A DNA stretch of 64,000 nucleotides, from NCBI RefSeq assembly GCF_003019035.1, contig NZ_CP027447.1; one strand, 5' to 3'. Numbering within the stretch: the stretch's first letter is position 1; each line of letters starts with the position of its first letter. A program made the position numbers and the translations under genes. Shown here in pieces: positions 6,093-56,972 of the stretch. Source of the stretch: Escherichia coli. GTDB taxonomy: Bacteria; Pseudomonadota; Gammaproteobacteria; Enterobacterales; Enterobacteriaceae. The notes below the pieces were generated by a model. It worked only from the letters and a program-made list of their open reading frames with translations. It ran no database searches and was not told where the DNA came from.

Positions 6093-7247
<1,155 letters not shown>

Positions 7248-18193: not shown

Positions 18194-21084
<2,891 letters not shown>

Positions 21085-22548: not shown

Positions 22549-22947
22549 TTATCTGGATTTGTTAACGTCTCTCGTCTCTTCTGGCAGATCTTCATCAAAC
22601 AACCTGCCCTGCATCCGATCCAGTTCTTCTTTTCTGACCCGCTTAACCACGCTGTAGACCCACTGAAGCGAAACACCAAACTTGCGGGCCAGTTCATGGT
22701 GGTTGCGTCCGTTAAACTCCCGGAAGATTTCCCGGTCGCGCTGACTGACCTTCCATACCATGCCCATCGGGAAATAAACGTTTTGCCCGCCCCAGACCTG
22801 CATCATGCGGTTCGCGACGGCCTGACCAATCTGGTCGGCAATTGCGGGCTCAATATCAATAATCTCGCGAACGGTCTCAGAGGTATGCTGTGCCAGTTCC
22901 ACCAGGAGTTCCGGCCCTTTACTTCGAAACTGATTCAGGTCGCTCAT
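22549..22947 (-). CDS. Mor/C-family transcriptional activator
   Basis: 132 aa. The segment GGQNVYFPMG...RDREIFREFNGRNHHELARKFGVSLQWVYSVVKRVR matches the recalled Mu Mor pattern (GGxxVYxP...FNGRN..EL...YGV....VY). Confidence 0.85.
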   Translation of the reverse strand: MSDLNQFRSKGPELLVELAQHTSETVREIIDIEPAIADQIGQAVANRMMQVWGGQNVYFPMGMVWKVSQRDREIFREFNGRNHHELARKFGVSLQWVYSVVKRVRKEELDRMQGRLFDEDLPEETRDVNKSR

Positions 22948-30382: not shown

Positions 30383-30693
30383 ATATGTGATAACCTGTTG
30401 CATATGTGGAAAATTTATGCCGCATTTGACGTGGGTTTTAATCCCAGTTTTACGGCAATTTCATGGGCTTTGCCGTAACGAGCTTTGGTCTGTCCATTGA
30501 GAACACGATAGACCTCATTGCGGCTGTAGCCGTGTTCTTCGGCCCAGCGGGTAAACGTGATACCACGCTGACGGAAGAGATTTTTAACTTGTTCGGAAGT
30601 CATTGTTGTCTCCTTTGTTGATGCAATGATGTTTGTTTTATATGTGATAGATTATGTGAACTATTGTTCTCATTGTCAATGAGGTTTATGTGA
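30383..30693. promoter_or_regulatory. five copies of WTATGTGR (candidate repressor/Ner operators)
   Basis: ATATGTGA at 30383 and 30640, ATATGTGG at 30402, TTATGTGA at 30652 and 30686. All five read the same way on the + strand, and the last overlaps the repressor GTG start. Confidence 0.5.
30415..30603 (-). CDS. Ner/Cro-like small HTH regulator, first gene of the early operon
   Basis: 62 aa (ITFTRWAEEHGYSRNEVYRVLNGQTKARYGKAHEIAVKLGLK), divergent from the repressor gene. Confidence 0.7.
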   Translation of the reverse strand: MTSEQVKNLFRQRGITFTRWAEEHGYSRNEVYRVLNGQTKARYGKAHEIAVKLGLKPTSNAA

Positions 30694-31115
30694 ATTTTGA
30701 TTCTCTTTGCGCGTCGCGGTTCAAAGCTGAGCGTTCGCGGTTATCACTCAAGCAGGCTGAAGTAGCAGCCCTTTGTGGCGTTTCAAGAGAAATGTGGGGG
30801 AAATATGAACGAGGGGTTGCTGTTCCCGGAGGTGAGTTACTTGCAGCCTTTGCAAGAATTGGGGCCAATGTACAGTTCATTCTTACCGGGGAGTCATCAG
30901 GTATAACTTTATCACGTGATGAAATGGAGTTACTGCAGCACTACCGGCAAGCACCGTTACAGGTCAAAGGTTCAGTTTTGTCGGCTTTGACTACTGGCTC
31001 CTCCAGAGAACGGGCGGAACAGGTTATTCATGGAGATGTTCTGGGGAATGTTATCAAAGGTAACGTAACCATAGGAACAGGTGGAATAATGAACAAAAAT
31101 ACCAAGAGAAGATGA
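30690..31115 (+). CDS. XRE-family HTH protein, probable prophage repressor (c analogue)
   Basis: GTG start with GAGG upstream. HTH LSLKQAEVAALCGVSREMWGKYERG. Divergent from the early operon. The C-terminal tail is VIHGDVLGNVIKGNVTIGTGG. Confidence 0.75.
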   Translation: MNFDSLCASRFKAERSRLSLKQAEVAALCGVSREMWGKYERGVAVPGGELLAAFARIGANVQFILTGESSGITLSRDEMELLQHYRQAPLQVKGSVLSALTTGSSRERAEQVIHGDVLGNVIKGNVTIGTGGIMNKNTKRR

Positions 31116-32098
31116 GTAAAGAGAAGCAAACAGTTAACGGGGATGTGGGTAACGTTGTCAGCGGTGATGTTACCATTCATAACTATTCTGCTGACATACT
31201 TCCTTCTGCCCAGCAACCAATTTCGTTGCTGCAAAAACGCGATTTACACAGATTGATGGATGAATTGGTTGATCTGGGGGAAAGTAAGCGCGAGCTATGG
31301 ATGACGATCCACACGAAACTTAATACCAAAACAGTTAATGAAATGACTGCGGCTGATTATCATGGTGCGGTTGAGATCCTTCAGAGATATGCACAACAGA
31401 TCCAGAATATGAAGGACTGTAATCTTCTGGTCAGCAAAATAATGGCGCTTACTGACCCTGGGTATCGTCTTGACCGTGACAGATACTGTCTGAAGCATTT
31501 CGGTACAACCCATCTTAAAGGCCTGGACAAAGAGCAGTTGCAGGCTGTGTTTGGTTATTTTGATGATCTGCTGAATATTCGTGATGAGAGTAAAACTCTA
31601 TCACCTCCATCGGAAAGCGGTGCAAAATCAGTCGCAACTGTACCAACCAGAAGCCGGAAGCCTCATGTAGTAGTGTTGGGGGGAGCGTTAGTTCTTGTAG
31701 CAATATTTTTCGTGGGAATGATTGTGTTCGCTGGTAAATGGGGAAATGCTAAAGCAGTAGCTTCTACTGAAACCAGCGTTTTTAACATTAAAACCAACGA
31801 CAAAATAATAGAAGATTCCATCCCCGCACTGCGCAGCATGTTTCCAGGATTAAATAAGTACTCAGATGATTTCCATTCGGTTTCAAGCTACAAGCAAAAA
31901 ACGGGCTGGCATACCCTTAAATTTACTGTATCAGCAAAGGCATCCGTCCCCGAAAATTATAGTGTTAAGGGCAAGGTTTGTTACATTAACATAAACCCTG
32001 ATGGTAGTTATGCTCGGGTTTTGACTGCTCCATGTCGTTCACTGCTACTTGATCAGCAAAGCACTCCTGACAGTAAGTACCGTTTTATTCTTAAATAG
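31112..32098 (+). CDS. orphan 328-aa single-pass membrane protein coupled to the repressor gene
   Basis: ATGA overlap with the repressor stop. The N-terminus is VNGDVGNVVSGDVTIHNY, the TM segment is HVVVLGGALVLVAIFFVGMIVFAG, and about 110 aa follow it. The coding DNA is AT-rich. Confidence 0.7.
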   Translation: MSKEKQTVNGDVGNVVSGDVTIHNYSADILPSAQQPISLLQKRDLHRLMDELVDLGESKRELWMTIHTKLNTKTVNEMTAADYHGAVEILQRYAQQIQNMKDCNLLVSKIMALTDPGYRLDRDRYCLKHFGTTHLKGLDKEQLQAVFGYFDDLLNIRDESKTLSPPSESGAKSVATVPTRSRKPHVVVLGGALVLVAIFFVGMIVFAGKWGNAKAVASTETSVFNIKTNDKIIEDSIPALRSMFPGLNKYSDDFHSVSSYKQKTGWHTLKFTVSAKASVPENYSVKGKVCYININPDGSYARVLTAPCRSLLLDQQSTPDSKYRFILK

Positions 32099-32182
32099 AA
32101 AATAACAGCTGAATTACCATGGGAGCAGAAAAAAGACAAAGGCGATATCATGCTGCGTTCTAAAATTTTAATGTAAAAGGTG

Positions 32183-32290
32183 ATGAACATGGCAGGGATT
32201 CAGGTTATCGCAGGAAGTTTTCCTAAAGGGTGGGCAAGCATGGGGTTCGGTACCATCGTGTTTGCCACCAATCCATGGAACGATGGGTAA
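32183..32290 (+). CDS. possible 35-aa peptide ORF (weak call)
   Basis: MNMAGIQVIAGSFPKGWASMGFGTIVFATNPWNDG, with AAGG close upstream. It lies inside the region between the 328-aa gene and the terminator. Confidence 0.2.
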   Translation: MNMAGIQVIAGSFPKGWASMGFGTIVFATNPWNDG

Positions 32291-32338
32291 TGTCTGCATT
32301 TTCATAATCTGTAAGCCTTTTACAATTATTAAAAATAT

Positions 32339-32448
32339 GGCAGGCTAGTCTGGTCTCGCGAGACTGACTGAACCTCGGTCGGCTCACAGTGCATTCCTGT
32401 GGGACGATGGCCAGCCCGGCTTTCGGGTGCCGGGCTGGTCGTTCTTTC
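32339..32448 (+). ncRNA. candidate structured RNA / 3' UTR element ending in a terminator
   Basis: It contains the 12-nt palindrome GTCTCGCGAGAC, the hairpin CACAG-TGCATTC-CTGTG and a long terminal stem. No ORF on the + strand spans this stretch. The 5' end is a guess. Confidence 0.3.
32411..32448 (+). terminator. rho-independent terminator closing the repressor-side transcription unit
   Basis: CCAGCCCGG-CTTTCGGGTG-CCGGGCTGG followed by TCGTTCTTTC. The stem can be extended by GACGA/TCGTT. Confidence 0.6.
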
Positions 32449-32494
32449 ATGATGCGGCAGGGATAGTGGGATTTCTGTTAATGTGGTTTAGGGA

Positions 32495-32710
32495 TTATCC
32501 GGGGTGATTGTCTGCCTTTATCTGGTCCAGGGCATAAGTGATCCCTTCAGCAAAAACAGAAGTATCGAACTGCTTTTGTATTTCCTGAAAATGAACAGTG
32601 GCACGACAGATACTCAGTTCTCCGCGATGTAACCGGATAATATCTTCCAGAACATTGTTCACTGCTTCGGCACGGCGCTGATGTTCTGTTAACGTTAATC
32701 GGGGATTCAT
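32495..32710 (-). CDS. orphan 71-aa protein
   Basis: Strong SD (TAAGGAG, 6-nt spacer). Its ATG shares 2 nt with the ATG of the divergent 134-aa ORF. Confidence 0.55.
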   Translation of the reverse strand: MNPRLTLTEHQRRAEAVNNVLEDIIRLHRGELSICRATVHFQEIQKQFDTSVFAEGITYALDQIKADNHPG

Positions 32711-33113
32711 GATGCACTCCTTAAATGATGATTTTTATGTACTCACCGGCAAAATATTCTGCCGATTACTGAACACGCATCCGGCACCTCAGGTTTTGAT
32801 TTATTCTGGTTTTTTCGATATCCCGGACCAGGTTGATCACGACCAGAAAAAGTGCCGGTATTTTATTGATACGCTGATATGGCTTCGGGATAACAGCTAT
32901 ATTCGTTACTCTCAGTTGCTGGCTGTGGGAGCGGCTGATGTCGTCCTCACGGAAAAAACGCTCTGTCTGCTCAATGCCATGCCGACCTTTCTGCAGCCCC
33001 GGCCCGTACCATTTAAAGAGTTGCTTCTGGATGCAGTAAAAACCGGCGAAAATGCAGTCATCGCTGAATGCGTATCCCGGATTATGCGTTACGTGTTTAA
33101 TGAACGTAAGTGA
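32709..33113 (+). CDS. orphan 134-aa protein, possibly winged-helix-like
   Basis: Coding-like codon pattern with GGGGA upstream. The segment IDTLIWLRDNSYIRYSQ...VVLTEKTLCLLN loosely resembles a wHTH recognition helix and wing. That reading is an inference. Confidence 0.55.
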   Translation: MMHSLNDDFYVLTGKIFCRLLNTHPAPQVLIYSGFFDIPDQVDHDQKKCRYFIDTLIWLRDNSYIRYSQLLAVGAADVVLTEKTLCLLNAMPTFLQPRPVPFKELLLDAVKTGENAVIAECVSRIMRYVFNERK

Positions 33114-33832
33114 GGTTTATCTGCTGTCTGCATAATCCCGATAGCCAGTGCGAGGGGAAGTAATTCCGGGGAAACTCTTTCAAACAGCGATGCCCATTCT
33201 CCTCTCGCCATCACTCTGTCCAGCCCGCCCCCCAGCTGCATTTCAGCAATCTTCCTGATTTCCCGGAACAACGCCGCTTTGATCTCTTCATGCTCAGCTT
33301 TATTTTCCGGTGTCAGAATGTATTCGTCGAAGAACCGGGGAGGCTGGTTAACGGGGATTGTGTTTACCGGGATGTGTTCCTGTTTCCCGTACTTCGGGGA
33401 CGAACAACATTCTGTTGGCTGACCGGTGAGTTTACGTAACTCCTTCATGAGCAGCTCCTGATCGTAAACTGTCATCAGTGCCGCAATGGTGGCATGCAGT
33501 GCATCGGGCAGTATCCAGGGTTGCCGGCCCGTGGGGCATATAACATCCAGTAGCTCATTCGTCCGACAGATACGCTCCTCTCCGTATGACAACAGGCCCT
33601 GTCCCGTGTATTCCTCCAGCCTGATCACTGTGCCAGCCCGTGGCTTCTGCCAGGTCGTCAGATCATCGCCACTCATACGGCGCTCATTCTCCACGTCAGC
33701 AGCATCGACAATGACGCTGTTTCCGAGTTCCTGTTTCACCACTTCCTCTATCCGCGCCAGTACGTAACTTTTACCGCTGCCCACAGGACCGGACACGGTG
33801 ACAGTGATGACCGGATTCAGTGTATGTGTCAT
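33089..33832 (-). CDS. orphan 247-aa P-loop protein
   Basis: Walker A VSGPVGSGKSYVL at residues 13-25 and a possible Walker B SVIVDAAD. SD GAGGAG. Divergent from the lysis genes, and its 3' end overlaps the 134-aa ORF by 25 nt. Confidence 0.7.
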   Translation of the reverse strand: MTHTLNPVITVTVSGPVGSGKSYVLARIEEVVKQELGNSVIVDAADVENERRMSGDDLTTWQKPRAGTVIRLEEYTGQGLLSYGEERICRTNELLDVICPTGRQPWILPDALHATIAALMTVYDQELLMKELRKLTGQPTECCSSPKYGKQEHIPVNTIPVNQPPRFFDEYILTPENKAEHEEIKAALFREIRKIAEMQLGGGLDRVMARGEWASLFERVSPELLPLALAIGIMQTADKPHLRSLNT

Positions 33833-33904
33833 GTTGCATTCTCCTCTGTGAATAATTCATCGTTTATCCTGCACATCCCGTATCCCCGGCTCTCTTAACG
33901 CGCT

Positions 33905-33943
33905 TTAAAATCCTTCGCGCCCTGTATTTGTGATGCTGTCTCC
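33905..33943 (+). promoter_or_regulatory. late-promoter-like bipartite motif, copy 1 (upstream of the lysis genes)
   Basis: TTAAAATC at 33905 and CTGTCTCC at 33936, with 31-nt start-to-start spacing. TAAAAT is -10-like, no -35 is evident, and a C-tract lies upstream. Confidence 0.4.
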
Positions 33944-33962
33944 ACCAGACAAGGAGACACAC

Positions 33963-34313
33963 ATGAAAAACCTGAAAAAATTCATTCCCCCTGTTAAAAA
34001 ACCTCGCCTCAGCGGCTGGCTGCTGACCTCAGTGCTGTTGCTGGGCACCATCGCTCTGGTCTCGCCACAGCAGCTGCCTGTTGTGATCTACAAGCTGGCA
34101 CTCATCACGCTGGCAGCAGTGCTGGGTTACTGGCTTGACCGTTCACTCTTCCCCAAAGCCCGTCCCGGTCAGTACCTGAAACATGAAGACAGGCTGATGG
34201 CTGAAGGGCGTTTCCCTGTGCAGACCGGCCTTCACCTTGTATTTTCTGCTGCGTTAATCCGCCGTGCACTGATTGTTGCAGCGGTCTGTCTGGCTGTGGC
34301 AACAGGACTGTGA
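33963..34313 (+). CDS. putative holin (116 aa, 3 TM)
   Basis: SD AAGGAG. MKNLKKF... has three hydrophobic segments. It is the first gene of the lysis cassette, so the call is by position and topology. Confidence 0.6.
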   Translation: MKNLKKFIPPVKKPRLSGWLLTSVLLLGTIALVSPQQLPVVIYKLALITLAAVLGYWLDRSLFPKARPGQYLKHEDRLMAEGRFPVQTGLHLVFSAALIRRALIVAAVCLAVATGL

Positions 34314-40980: not shown

Positions 40981-41026
40981 GAGGGGCTGTATTACCTTTA
41001 TAAAGGCTTTACAGCCTCTGTTTTAT
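40981..41026 (+). terminator. hairpin plus T-run ending the first late unit
   Basis: GAGGGGCTGTA...TACAGCCTC with an inner palindrome CCTTTATAAAGG, followed by TGTTTTAT. Confidence 0.55.
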
Positions 41027-41089
41027 AACCGCTTCCGGTTCACCGCATTGCTTTCCCTGTCCTTCTCCCCTGATGTTTTCTAAAGCAGA

Positions 41090-41128
41090 TTAAAATCGCC
41101 GGGCCTGCATTTCTCACAAACTGTCTCC
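41090..41128 (+). promoter_or_regulatory. late-promoter-like bipartite motif, copy 2 (upstream of the protease/scaffold gene)
   Basis: TTAAAATC at 41090 and CTGTCTCC at 41121, with the same 31-nt spacing as copy 1. Confidence 0.4.
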
Positions 41129-41152
41129 GACAACATAACGCGGGACAGCAAA

Positions 41153-46969: not shown

Positions 46970-46976
46970 CATCACA

Positions 46977-46998
46977 GGGGCTCCGGCCCCTTCTTTTT
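46977..46998 (+). terminator. rho-independent terminator inside the tail region
   Basis: GGGGC-TCCG-GCCCC followed by TTCTTTTT. Confidence 0.6.
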
Positions 46999-47006
46999 AA
47001 TCCCCT

Positions 47007-47045
47007 TTAATATCCGTCACGTCCACCGCCAGACATACTGCTCTG
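47007..47045 (+). promoter_or_regulatory. late-promoter-like bipartite motif, copy 3 (upstream of the tail chaperone gene)
   Basis: TTAATATC at 47007 and CTGCTCTG at 47038, spacing 31 nt. The flanking CCTTTAATATC is shared with copy 4. Confidence 0.35.
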
Positions 47046-52805: not shown

Positions 52806-52821
52806 ACCTTCTTAAACGCCT

Positions 52822-52861
52822 TTAATATCGGCGCTTACTTCCCGGGGGCAATACTGCCTCC
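52822..52861 (+). promoter_or_regulatory. late-promoter-like bipartite motif, copy 4 (upstream of the baseplate W gene)
   Basis: TTAATATC at 52822 and CTGCCTCC at 52854, spacing 32 nt. The second box abuts the ATG at 52862. Confidence 0.35.
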
Positions 52862-53209
52862 ATGAAAACGACCTCAGTATTCTGGCAACCAGCTCTGCAG
52901 GCTCCCGGCGAAATCGTCCGGGGGCTGGATGATATCCGGCAGTCCATCCAGATCATCCTGCGGACTCCCCGCGGCAGCGACCCGCATCGCCCGGAGTTCG
53001 GCAGCAATCTGCACCTTTATATCGACTGGCCTGTCGACCGGGCCATTCCGCATGTGGTTCGCGAATCCGTCGATGCCATCAGGCGCTGGGAACCCCGCTG
53101 CCAGCTTATGTCGGTTAAACCCGCCGTCGACGGCGAACATCTTACGCTCCGGGTGAGCTGGAAAGGCTCAGACGGACAACCCCGTACTCAGGAACTGCTA
53201 TGGCGCTGA
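52862..53209 (+). CDS. baseplate wedge protein (GPW/gp25-like)
   Basis: 115 aa. IRQSIQIILRTPRGSDPHRPEFGSNL is the hallmark motif. Confidence 0.8.
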   Translation: MKTTSVFWQPALQAPGEIVRGLDDIRQSIQIILRTPRGSDPHRPEFGSNLHLYIDWPVDRAIPHVVRESVDAIRRWEPRCQLMSVKPAVDGEHLTLRVSWKGSDGQPRTQELLWR

Positions 53210-55851: not shown

Positions 55852-56469
55852 TCAACTGGCTGCTGCCAGAGGCATTTCCGGCCAGTTGATATCCGGTGCA
55901 GTGCTGATGTCAGTCGCATTAAGCACATCTATGAAATCAAGCACGGCGTTTAGTTTTTCCGTCTCCTGGGGCGTCAATCGGCGTCCGGCTCGTAGTTTGA
56001 GATTTATAAGCTCAACAGATGCCATTGCCTGTTCCTCAAGTTGCTGACGATGCACTCCGGCAGCTTCCAGTTCTGCTGCGTGCTGTCGTCCCGCATCTGT
56101 CACCCAGGTCTCACCATCCCAGACATCATAGATAGTAGCTGGCTGTTTCACCGTCGTATCAGGAGGGTAATCTCCCGGTTGTGTGATTTGCACAGCGTTA
56201 CCATTCTCTGTGCTGTAAACCGTTTCGCCTCTGTGGTCTGGAACATATTTCCAGATGTTCTGGTCGGTATCACGACAGACAGCGAAGCCGGGGCGTTTTT
56301 CTGGTGGCGCGTCAATGCATGAGTGAGCCGGAATTCCAACACCATAAGCGAGATACTCAACAGTGGCAGAGAGATATTCACGGTTTTCAGCATCGTAGTT
56401 ATAAACGGTAATATCGCCTGCAGTTATAGCGATACCATTCTGATCAAGTACTGCAGCAGCATTATTCAT
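55852..56469 (-). CDS. tail fibre assembly chaperone (Tfa/Mu U-like), serving the silent tip B
   Basis: 205 aa. ITVYNYDAENREYL...IYDVWDGETWVTD...LNAVLDFIDVLNATDIS is a typical Tfa. Its start overlaps the tip B stop (TAATG). Confidence 0.8.
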   Translation of the reverse strand: MNNAAAVLDQNGIAITAGDITVYNYDAENREYLSATVEYLAYGVGIPAHSCIDAPPEKRPGFAVCRDTDQNIWKYVPDHRGETVYSTENGNAVQITQPGDYPPDTTVKQPATIYDVWDGETWVTDAGRQHAAELEAAGVHRQQLEEQAMASVELINLKLRAGRRLTPQETEKLNAVLDFIDVLNATDISTAPDINWPEMPLAAAS

Positions 56470-56972
56470 TAAGTAGCCCTTACAATATAGTTAAACGCAA
56501 TATTACGGGGGCGGTTTTCCGTTCCTGTATTCCCTCCGTTGGCACCTAATCTATAAACACCACGAGTGCCAATAGCACGTAGTGAAGATGGAACTTTTAC
56601 ACCTGACTCATCTGTTTTAACAATCCCGCCATCACCGTATGTAGCCAGTATACCAGGGTTTGTTCCTGCACGGGTGCTATTTGCGGCAAGCCCTTCACCA
56701 GTCCATAACTCCATATAGTGAATATGATCTATAACCGAATGTGATTGTGCATTAAGCAAGGAACGCCCTGAATCAATTCCCCGCCCGTCATCCCAGCCGC
56801 GAATAAACTCACCCCGTAAATCCGGTAATTTATTCGCGGGGTAGGCTTTTGCCAGTTTGGGGTACATTTCAGAAGAAAATGCTGCACCGTTACATTTCAG
56901 CCACCCTGCTGGCGGTGTGGCTGAGGGCCACGGAACGGGCACACCAACGGGCAGTGCAGAGCCTTCCCCCAA
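56469..56972 (-). CDS. alternative tail-fibre tip B cassette (silent in this orientation)
   Basis: GEGSALPVGVPVPWPSATPPAGWLKCNGAAFSSEMYPKLAKAYPANKLPDLRGEFIRGWDDGRGID closely matches tip A residues, then diverges. It has no start context of its own. Confidence 0.75.
   Translation of the reverse strand: MGEGSALPVGVPVPWPSATPPAGWLKCNGAAFSSEMYPKLAKAYPANKLPDLRGEFIRGWDDGRGIDSGRSLLNAQSHSVIDHIHYMELWTGEGLAANSTRAGTNPGILATYGDGGIVKTDESGVKVPSSLRAIGTRGVYRLGANGGNTGTENRPRNIAFNYIVRAT

Follow-up and report, generated by a model that had tools for sequence, protein, structure and literature searches.

The stretch of Escherichia coli DNA analysed here, 64,000 nucleotides of contig NZ_CP027447.1 (the window), carries what we identify as a transposable Mu-like prophage of the BcepMu type, about 36 kb long, and a motif of two boxes, TTAAWATC and CTGYCTCY at a fixed spacing, stands at the head of each of its four late transcription units. 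We read the four copies as late promoters of the design known from phage Mu, which would depend on the single Mor-family activator of the prophage, and we put the probability of this reading, including the roles given below to the two boxes, at roughly 0.8. The first-pass annotation had placed the sites among activator-dependent promoters of the Mor/C type that head late units, two of them right after terminators, and this promoter class is supported here. However, the roles of the two boxes had been swapped: TAAWAT in the first box had been taken for the -10 and the second box for a transcribed element, whereas comparison with relatives and with Mu points to an activator half-site in the first box and to the end of the -10 in the second.

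The combination of TTAAWATC with a downstream CTG(Y)CTC was confirmed at the four reported places and at no others, with start-to-start spacings of 31, 31, 31 and 32 nt:

33905/33936, plus strand: boxes of copy 1, TTAAAATC...CTGTCTCC
41090/41121, plus strand: boxes of copy 2, with the same letters as copy 1
47007/47038, plus strand: boxes of copy 3, TTAATATC...CTGCTCTG
52822/52854, plus strand: boxes of copy 4, TTAATATC...CTGCCTCC

Copies 3 and 4 do have CCTTTAATATC and ATACTGC in common, as claimed, and the second box of copy 3 departs from CTGYCTCY, as the earlier listing itself shows. TTAAWATC by itself was not significantly enriched in the window (six matches, 2.4 expected); the spaced combination TTAAWATC-N23-CTG was matched three times, with 0.04 matches expected. 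The motif turned out to reach further upstream, as YTAA-N6-TTAAWATC, of which the first box is the right half only, and with one mismatch allowed this longer form matched the four sites and nothing else (4 versus 0.53 expected; 0 of 100 shuffles). A two-part weight matrix trained on relatives alone, with the window excluded, was then scanned over both strands of the 64 kb and scored the four sites at 41–49 bits, the next best match reaching 14 bits. The matrix called no further site, whether ahead of the Mor gene, ahead of an accessory gene or elsewhere. The 14-bit match, at 19868 on the minus strand (CTTTATAACGATGATAAAAATC ... AAAACT), lies outside the late region and is probably due to chance.

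The roles of the boxes were assigned by comparison with three phage records and 50 loci from species-representative genomes, the relatives coming from Mixta, Pantoea, Erwinia, Photorhabdus, Xenorhabdus, Pectobacterium, Brenneria, Dickeya, Serratia, Symbiopectobacterium, Salmonella diarizonae and Undibacterium. A search of related prophages had been proposed, and it recovered the same promoters at the corresponding junctions from E. coli to Burkholderia; BcepMu itself, a Burkholderia phage, has the same four sites as the window, with the same motif, spacing and gene junctions. Every site consisted of a conserved block, from about 4 nt 5' of the distal TTAA to just past TTAAWAT, a variable 19-nt spacer and a second conserved block. 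The C-tracts noted earlier upstream of the boxes showed no conservation in the relatives. We anchored 96 distinct promoter copies on TTAA-N6-TTAA alone, without assuming the position of the -10, and numbered positions from the initial T of the proximal TTAA (p). The copies had A at p+28 in 97%, C at p+31 in 92%, T at p+32 in 96%, G at p+33 in 95% and a purine at p+39 in 88%. The bases most needed by sigma-70 are A-11 and T-7. On this alignment the -10 is nAnnCT, which supplies A-11, C-8 and T-7; next come G-6, a run of pyrimidines and the start purine. It lies 27 bp from the proximal TTAA in every relative, and 28 bp only at the fourth promoter of the window. The -35 position reads WATCSN at the four sites, which have a recognisable -10 without a -35 hexamer, and a scan with the sigma-70 consensus called none of them, as expected for promoters of this kind. 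We assign TTAAWATC as the promoter-proximal half-site plus adjacent bases that overlap the -35 position, and CTGYCTCC as the stretch from -8 to -1, predicted to be untranscribed, which comprises C-8/T-7 of the -10, G-6 and the pyrimidine tract up to the start purine. The four promoters (P1–P4), with predicted starts at 33944, 41129, 47046 and 52862, are made up as follows:

33895..33912, plus strand: P1 activator site, TTAACGCGCTTTAAAATC, with the distal TTAA at 33895-98 and the proximal TTAA at 33905-08; 47.4 bits
33929..33944, plus strand: P1 core, with TG at 33929-30, -10 GATGCT at 33932-37, discriminator GTCTCC at 33938-43 and predicted +1 at A33944; offset 27
41080..41097, plus strand: P2 activator site, CTAAAGCAGATTAAAATC, which is TTAAAAGC in most relatives; 41.0 bits
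41117..41129, plus strand: P2 core, with -10 CAAACT at 41117-22, discriminator GTCTCC at 41123-28 and predicted +1 at G41129; offset 27
46997..47014, plus strand: P3 activator site, TTAATCCCCTTTAATATC; 45.2 bits
47034..47046, plus strand: P3 core, with -10 CATACT at 47034-39, discriminator GCTCTG and predicted +1 at A47046; offset 27
52812..52829, plus strand: P4 activator site, TTAAACGCCTTTAATATC; 49.2 bits, the highest-scoring site
52844..52864, plus strand: P4 core and hairpin, with GGGGGCA at 52844-50, ATAC, TGCCTCC at 52855-61 and -10 AATACT at 52850-55; offset 28
A52862, plus strand: P4 predicted +1, which coincides with the first base of the start codon (ATG) of baseplate gene W

The P1 activator site is kept by every relative, in contrast to its upstream flank and the 19-nt spacer, which diverge, and the second box (33936-43) occupies -8 to -1.

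Mu has four late promoters with -10 but without -35 hexamers, at which the C protein binds a 16-bp imperfect dyad centred at -43.5 and overlapping the -35, the stretch from -52 to -34 and the -10 being needed (Jiang and Howe, PMC2582627). The Mu sequences used here come from its genome record and from a table of oligonucleotides in PMC4461284, in which +1 is fixed by S1 mapping. The Mu late promoters have two 4-bp half-sites 6 bp apart, TTAT-N6-ATAA at Pmom, the other three keeping the proximal ATAA, and at each promoter this ATAA starts exactly 28 bp ahead of the -10 (TAGACT, CAAACT, TATCCT and TAAGAT). The prophage promoters share this layout of 4-N6-4 half-sites over the -35 position with a centre near -43 (-42.5 here, with the predicted +1 set 7 nt past T-7) and a proximal half-site 27–28 bp before the -10. 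P1 and P2 also stand at the positions of Plys and PI, before the lysis genes and before protease/scaffold gene I, and PI has the same -10 as P2, CAAACT followed by G, at the homologous position before gene I. The -10 regions are alike more generally (TAGACTGCC and CAAACTGAC in Mu; CAAACTGTC, CATACTGCT and AATACTGCC in the prophage). However, the Mu half-sites are TTAT/ATAA(C)CCC whereas those of the prophage are TTAA/TTAA, the offset is 28 bp in Mu and 27 bp in the prophage, and the other two Mu promoters precede P and mom, whereas P3 and P4 precede the tail chaperone and baseplate W.

The window encodes one candidate activator:

22549..22947, minus strand: Mor/C-family activator gene (Pfam PF08765 Mor, 1.1e-43), the final gene of the leftward early operon

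The gene directly follows gemA, as mor does in Mu, and is itself followed by a terminator-like hairpin. Its product is as similar to Mor as to C, with 31% identity to Mu Mor and 35% to Mu C (BLASTP 1e-15 and 6e-15, respectively). A tblastn search of the window with Mu Mor and Mu C returned no second homologue, in line with the earlier remark that a single Mor/C-family gene is visible where Mu uses Mor and then C, and the weight matrix placed no motif copy before any regulator gene. It seems that the Mor-like protein acts on the four late promoters without an intermediate. In Mu, Mor activates Pm through a proposed dyad-symmetrical element, adjacent downstream bases also being important (PMC2582627). 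There Mor drives that one promoter, whose product C drives the late genes, whereas we read the prophage cascade as running from early to late without a middle step, because no motif copy precedes a regulator gene and the activator sits at the mor position. In the mechanism that we propose, the end of the early operon would yield a single Mor/C-family protein, which would bind YTAA-N6-TTAA centred about 42–43 bp 5' of each of the four late starts and recruit sigma-70 RNA polymerase there, the promoters having a -10 and lacking a -35, as Mu C does at Plys, PI, PP and Pmom. The C-terminal end of the Mor-like protein reads ...RMQGRLFDEDL, in which QGRLF resembles clamp-binding motifs reported for the Mor/MuC family (PMC12867686). 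A search of the literature available to us found no account of late promoters in BcepMu-type phages, and a search for a footprint of RdgB, a Pectobacterium Mor homologue, on pnlA yielded nothing usable; a possible RdgB link was prompted only by the annotation of Klebsiella phage KP12.

Two other accounts of the motif have to be weighed against an activator site with a -10 downstream. In the original one, TAAAAT or TAATAT is the -10, transcription starts about 7 nt downstream and CTGYCTCC is transcribed at +15 to +25, where it would act on the leader RNA or on DNA. Both hexamers are nearer to TATAAT than those that we propose, and the hairpins described below would fall within a real leader and could control translation, as Com does for mom in Mu. 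However, the T-7 of such a -10, essential for sigma-70 recognition, is the base at p+6, which is T in 62% and G in 33% of the 96 copies (P2 of most relatives, TTAAAAGC; Pectobacterium, TTAACAGC), and on this comparison a -10 ending in G is not credible. The aligned relatives show no conservation at -35 or from -40 to -55, where the -35 or the activator site for this -10 would fall, as conservation stops 14 nt 5' of the box. TAAWAT moreover lies where the footprinted proximal C half-site lies in Mu, 27–28 bp before the downstream hexamer, and +15 to +25 is accordingly the wrong place for the second box. The leader of W would also be 27 nt long, without a Shine-Dalgarno (SD) sequence and with a stable hairpin against its AUG. 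We consider this account quite unlikely. The transcribed element left unexplained by the first-pass annotation largely dissolves, the box being placed at -8 to -1, and a role at the RNA level stays plausible for read-through transcripts only. Still less probable, to the point that we give it hardly any weight, is that the boxes are sites for another DNA-binding protein, such as a repressor, IHF/Fis or a factor for transposition or packaging, or remnants of duplicated DNA. AT-rich TTAA-N6-TTAA could suit a nucleoid protein. However, all four copies are in coding-strand orientation within the intergenic gaps ahead of late units, at a fixed distance from a -10-like hexamer and a start purine; they recur at the same four junctions from E. 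coli to Burkholderia; their geometry equals that of the Mu C sites; and the flanks of the four copies are unrelated, unlike what duplication would leave. The promoter reading itself faces some difficulties: the -10 assignment rests on comparative conservation together with the Mu analogy, the hexamers GATGCT and CAAACT are weak, and the half-sites are direct repeats of TTAA, itself palindromic, which makes recognition as a dyad and as a direct repeat indistinguishable.

The assignment of the starts drew support from start codons that lack an SD sequence and coincide with the predicted +1. The open reading frame (ORF) of W has no SD sequence, and its first start codon, at 52862, is preceded by CTGCCTCC and has its A exactly 7 nt past T-7. 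The distance from T-7 to this ATG is 7–8 nt in E. coli, Photorhabdus, Xenorhabdus, Dickeya, Symbiopectobacterium, Undibacterium and BcepMu. Consistently, gene I of BcepMu and Undibacterium has an SD-less ATG 7–8 nt past T-7. The annotated start of BcepMu gp32, at 18850, falls inside the predicted -10 GATGAT (region 18849-18864), and the ATG at 18862, 8 nt past T-7, aligns with the N-terminus of the protease/scaffold protein of the window. The annotated gp32 start is probably wrong, and we predict that the mRNAs of both W and BcepMu gp32 are leaderless. A known leaderless mRNA is that of lambda cI transcribed from PRM. Its start codon lies at +1 and lacks an SD sequence, which is the arrangement predicted here for W of every lineage and for gene I of BcepMu and Undibacterium. 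The prophage gene differs in that, if leaderless, it would head an operon of structural (baseplate/fibre) genes. At the W junction of BcepMu (30807-30825) and of Undibacterium, the ATG follows directly after the conserved hairpin, as at 52844-52864 in the window.

The bases just before the predicted starts can also pair with sequences nearby. Two of the inverted repeats extend past +1:

33937..33959, plus strand: P1 inverted repeat, TGTCTCC-N9-GGAGACA, with -7 to -1 as its 5' arm and the holin SD (ATG 33963) as its 3' arm
41121..41148, plus strand: P2 inverted repeat, CTGTCTC-N14-GGGACAG, just 5' of the protease/scaffold gene (ATG 41153)

At P1, TGTCTCC from -7 to -1 is exactly complementary to GGAGACA, the holin SD. 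The P3 hairpin with the SD region is weaker than its P1 and P2 equivalents, and at P4 TGCCTCC pairs with GGGGGCA just 5' of the -10, in a hairpin that abuts the ATG. Read-through RNA across P1–P4 folded at -14.2, -10.7, -10.5 and -12.7 kcal/mol (z scores of -3.0, -2.0, -1.25 and -2.2), whereas RNA begun at the predicted +1 had little stable structure (-0.5 to -5.9 kcal/mol) and was unstructured from 33944. Among the 28 late genes, the ribosome-binding sites of the four first genes ranked 3rd, 5th, 7th and 8th least accessible, and they were open in RNA started at +1. RNAalifold recovered the stems from alignments of the relatives. In the P1 stem, 98.9% of cells were paired across 25 relatives, with C-G, U.G and U-A variants among E. 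coli, Photorhabdus and Xenorhabdus; its covariation was not significant (155 of 500 shuffles), both arms hardly varying. The P2 stem had 93.4% of cells paired and a covariation of 0.41 versus 0.25 in shuffles (0 of 500), including a change from T-A to C-G between the window and Photorhabdus, and the P4 stem had 94.7% paired (2 of 500 shuffles). In a set of 42 promoters that spans 12 lineages, -6 to -1 paired with a probability of 0.84, compared with 0.47 in dinucleotide shuffles. The 5' arm precedes the predicted start and the 3' arm lies on the SD at P1–P3 of the window and in most lineages, whereas at P4 and at P1 and P2 of BcepMu the arms flank the -10.

Based on these folding models, a second layer that acts by fold-back on read-through RNA is plausible, at slightly less than an even chance. 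The bases from -6 to -1 are complementary to the SD region of the first gene at P1–P3, or to a G-run just 5' of the -10 at P4; transcripts entering from upstream would fold the ribosome-binding site away, and RNA begun at the promoter would lack that arm and be translatable. The stronger claim, that the six bases before the start double as an anti-ribosome-binding-site arm so that only RNA initiated with the Mor-like protein is translated, leaderless in the extreme case, is tentative, and we would rate it somewhat below an even chance. Reportedly, Davis, Simons and Kleckner described in 1985 such a fold-back inhibition of transposase translation on read-through transcripts of IS10/Tn10. In that system, as predicted here, sequence just before the element's own start is complementary to the ribosome-binding site, so that outside transcripts are masked and its own are not. 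However, in IS10/Tn10 the device concerns a transposase gene and the prophage would use it at four late promoters, at some of which the partner arm lies 5' of the -10 and not at the SD.

Several facts weigh against the hairpin layer: the arms at P1 may be conserved for other reasons, as promoter and as SD; the P1 hairpin of BcepMu flanks the -10 and leaves the SD free; discriminator pairing in Mu occurs at PI alone; and the shuffle tests are inflated by the relatedness of the sequences. Whether the second box is kept mainly as an anti-SD arm that silences the first gene on incoming transcripts, which would be compatible with an ordinary promoter, comes close to an even question, with the odds slightly against. 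The CTCC-type boxes complement GGAG-type SDs not only in the window (TGTCTCC/GGAGACA at P1, CTGTCTC/GGGACAG at P2) but also through compensatory or wobble changes elsewhere (CTGCCTCTAT/ATAGAGGCAG in Photorhabdus; CTGTTTCC/GGAAACAG at Xenorhabdus locus L020). The excess of pairing across the 12 lineages points the same way, as does the end of the 5' arm at -1 or -2, which leaves locally started RNA free, and ORFs on the immunity side point to the lysis genes in the window and in BcepMu, which would make it useful for a lysogen to keep the holin ribosome-binding site hidden. However, strong terminators already precede P2 and P3, the partner arm at P4 and at BcepMu P1 and P2 is 5' of the -10 and not at the SD, promoter function alone accounts for G-6 and C-8/T-7, and the statistical support is moderate and confounded by phylogeny. 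Action of the inverted repeats on DNA, by stem-loop extrusion or by altered melting or escape at Mor-activated promoters, is improbable. It would fit the placement of the -10 as the loop of a perfect 5–8 bp inverted repeat ending at -1 (P4 of the window; P1, P2 and P4 of BcepMu), and Mu C reportedly unwinds or distorts promoter DNA and has a role after recruitment (PMC4461284; bioRxiv 10.1101/2025.05.02.651988). However, the partner arm at P1–P3 of the window lies 10–20 nt past +1, where no role in initiation is obvious, the tolerated G.U-type variants (T opposite G) fit RNA better than a DNA cruciform, and the stems are short for extrusion. In Mu, a perfect inverted repeat, CTGCTCA-N10-TGAGCAG, spans the mapped start of PI and the region just before the gene I SD (about 7025-7048), analogous to the P2 hairpin. 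Plys, PP and Pmom of Mu showed no discriminator pairing, so the hairpin is not a general feature of Mor/C promoters.

The analysis supplies an operator and promoter consensus (YTAA-N6-TTAA, 27 bp, nAnnCT-G) for the Mor-family activator of a very common prophage group, which is carried by about 12% of the complete E. coli genomes and also by many Enterobacterales and Burkholderia, and it suggests a cascade of two steps (early and late) in BcepMu-type phages as opposed to three in Mu. Late operons thereby become annotatable, with at least one start codon to correct, that of BcepMu gp32. The promoter design is the ordinary one known from Mu, and beyond annotation only the hairpins that mask ribosome-binding sites and the leaderless W would interest specialists. 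If true, the anti-SD discriminator together with leaderless W would be a compact way of coupling translation to the correct promoter, and a translational insulator embedded in a promoter would be conserved from Enterobacterales to Betaproteobacteria.

Over 22000-46000 the identity is 95% with Escherichia phage PhiKM, of the genus Bcepmuvirus, and about 86% with KP12, and a related copy was found in 646 of 5426 complete E. coli genomes. The early genes run leftward from a region with a helix-turn-helix (HTH)/ner-like gene near 30.4 kb through the transposase and gemA to the Mor-family gene; the late genes are transcribed rightward, beginning with the holin at 33963 and reaching the tail fibres near 55.8 kb. 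The four sites head the units that begin with the holin (lysis/packaging), the protease/scaffold gene (head), the tail chaperone (tail) and baseplate W (baseplate/fibre). P3 precedes the tail assembly chaperone gene (Pfam Phage_TAC_7), which starts at ATG 47061 or, more likely, at ATG 47067. The terminators reported ahead of copies 2 and 3 were confirmed (40982-41019 and 46976-46991, each with a U-tract):

40982..41027, plus strand: intrinsic terminator at the end of the lysis/packaging unit and just 5' of P2; -20.7 kcal/mol, z -4.2, with UGUUUUAU after it
46976..46999, plus strand: intrinsic terminator ending the head/sheath/tube unit, with a U-tract that enters the distal TTAA of P3

A scan of 33000-54000 against Rfam gave no family at E values up to 1. 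The terminator hairpin after the Mu G-like gene, its central TTTATAAAGGCTTTAC motif included, is shared by the window (40982-41019) and Burkholderia BcepMu (18733-18760), a conservation unusual for a terminator. On the immunity side, an HTH gene of immunity type and the ORFs that follow it are oriented toward the lysis cassette in the window (30690-33113, plus strand) and in BcepMu (NC_005882, 9226-11488, plus strand). In BcepMu, gp17-gp20 run into the holin gene gp21 without an opposing gene between them, which makes holin read-through a real risk in lysogens. A 247-aa ORF (33089-33832, minus strand) lies directly 5' of P1 in the window; it has a weak AAA_30 match only and is swapped for unrelated sequence in KP12 and Phi06_2974 B. 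We read 30.7-33.8 kb as a variable cargo slot. At the other end of the late region, a tail-fibre assembly ORF (Caudo_TAP) and a collar-domain ORF (55852-56972, minus strand) are inverted relative to the late operon, which, together with an invertase seen in KP12, suggests an invertible host-range segment like the G segment of Mu.

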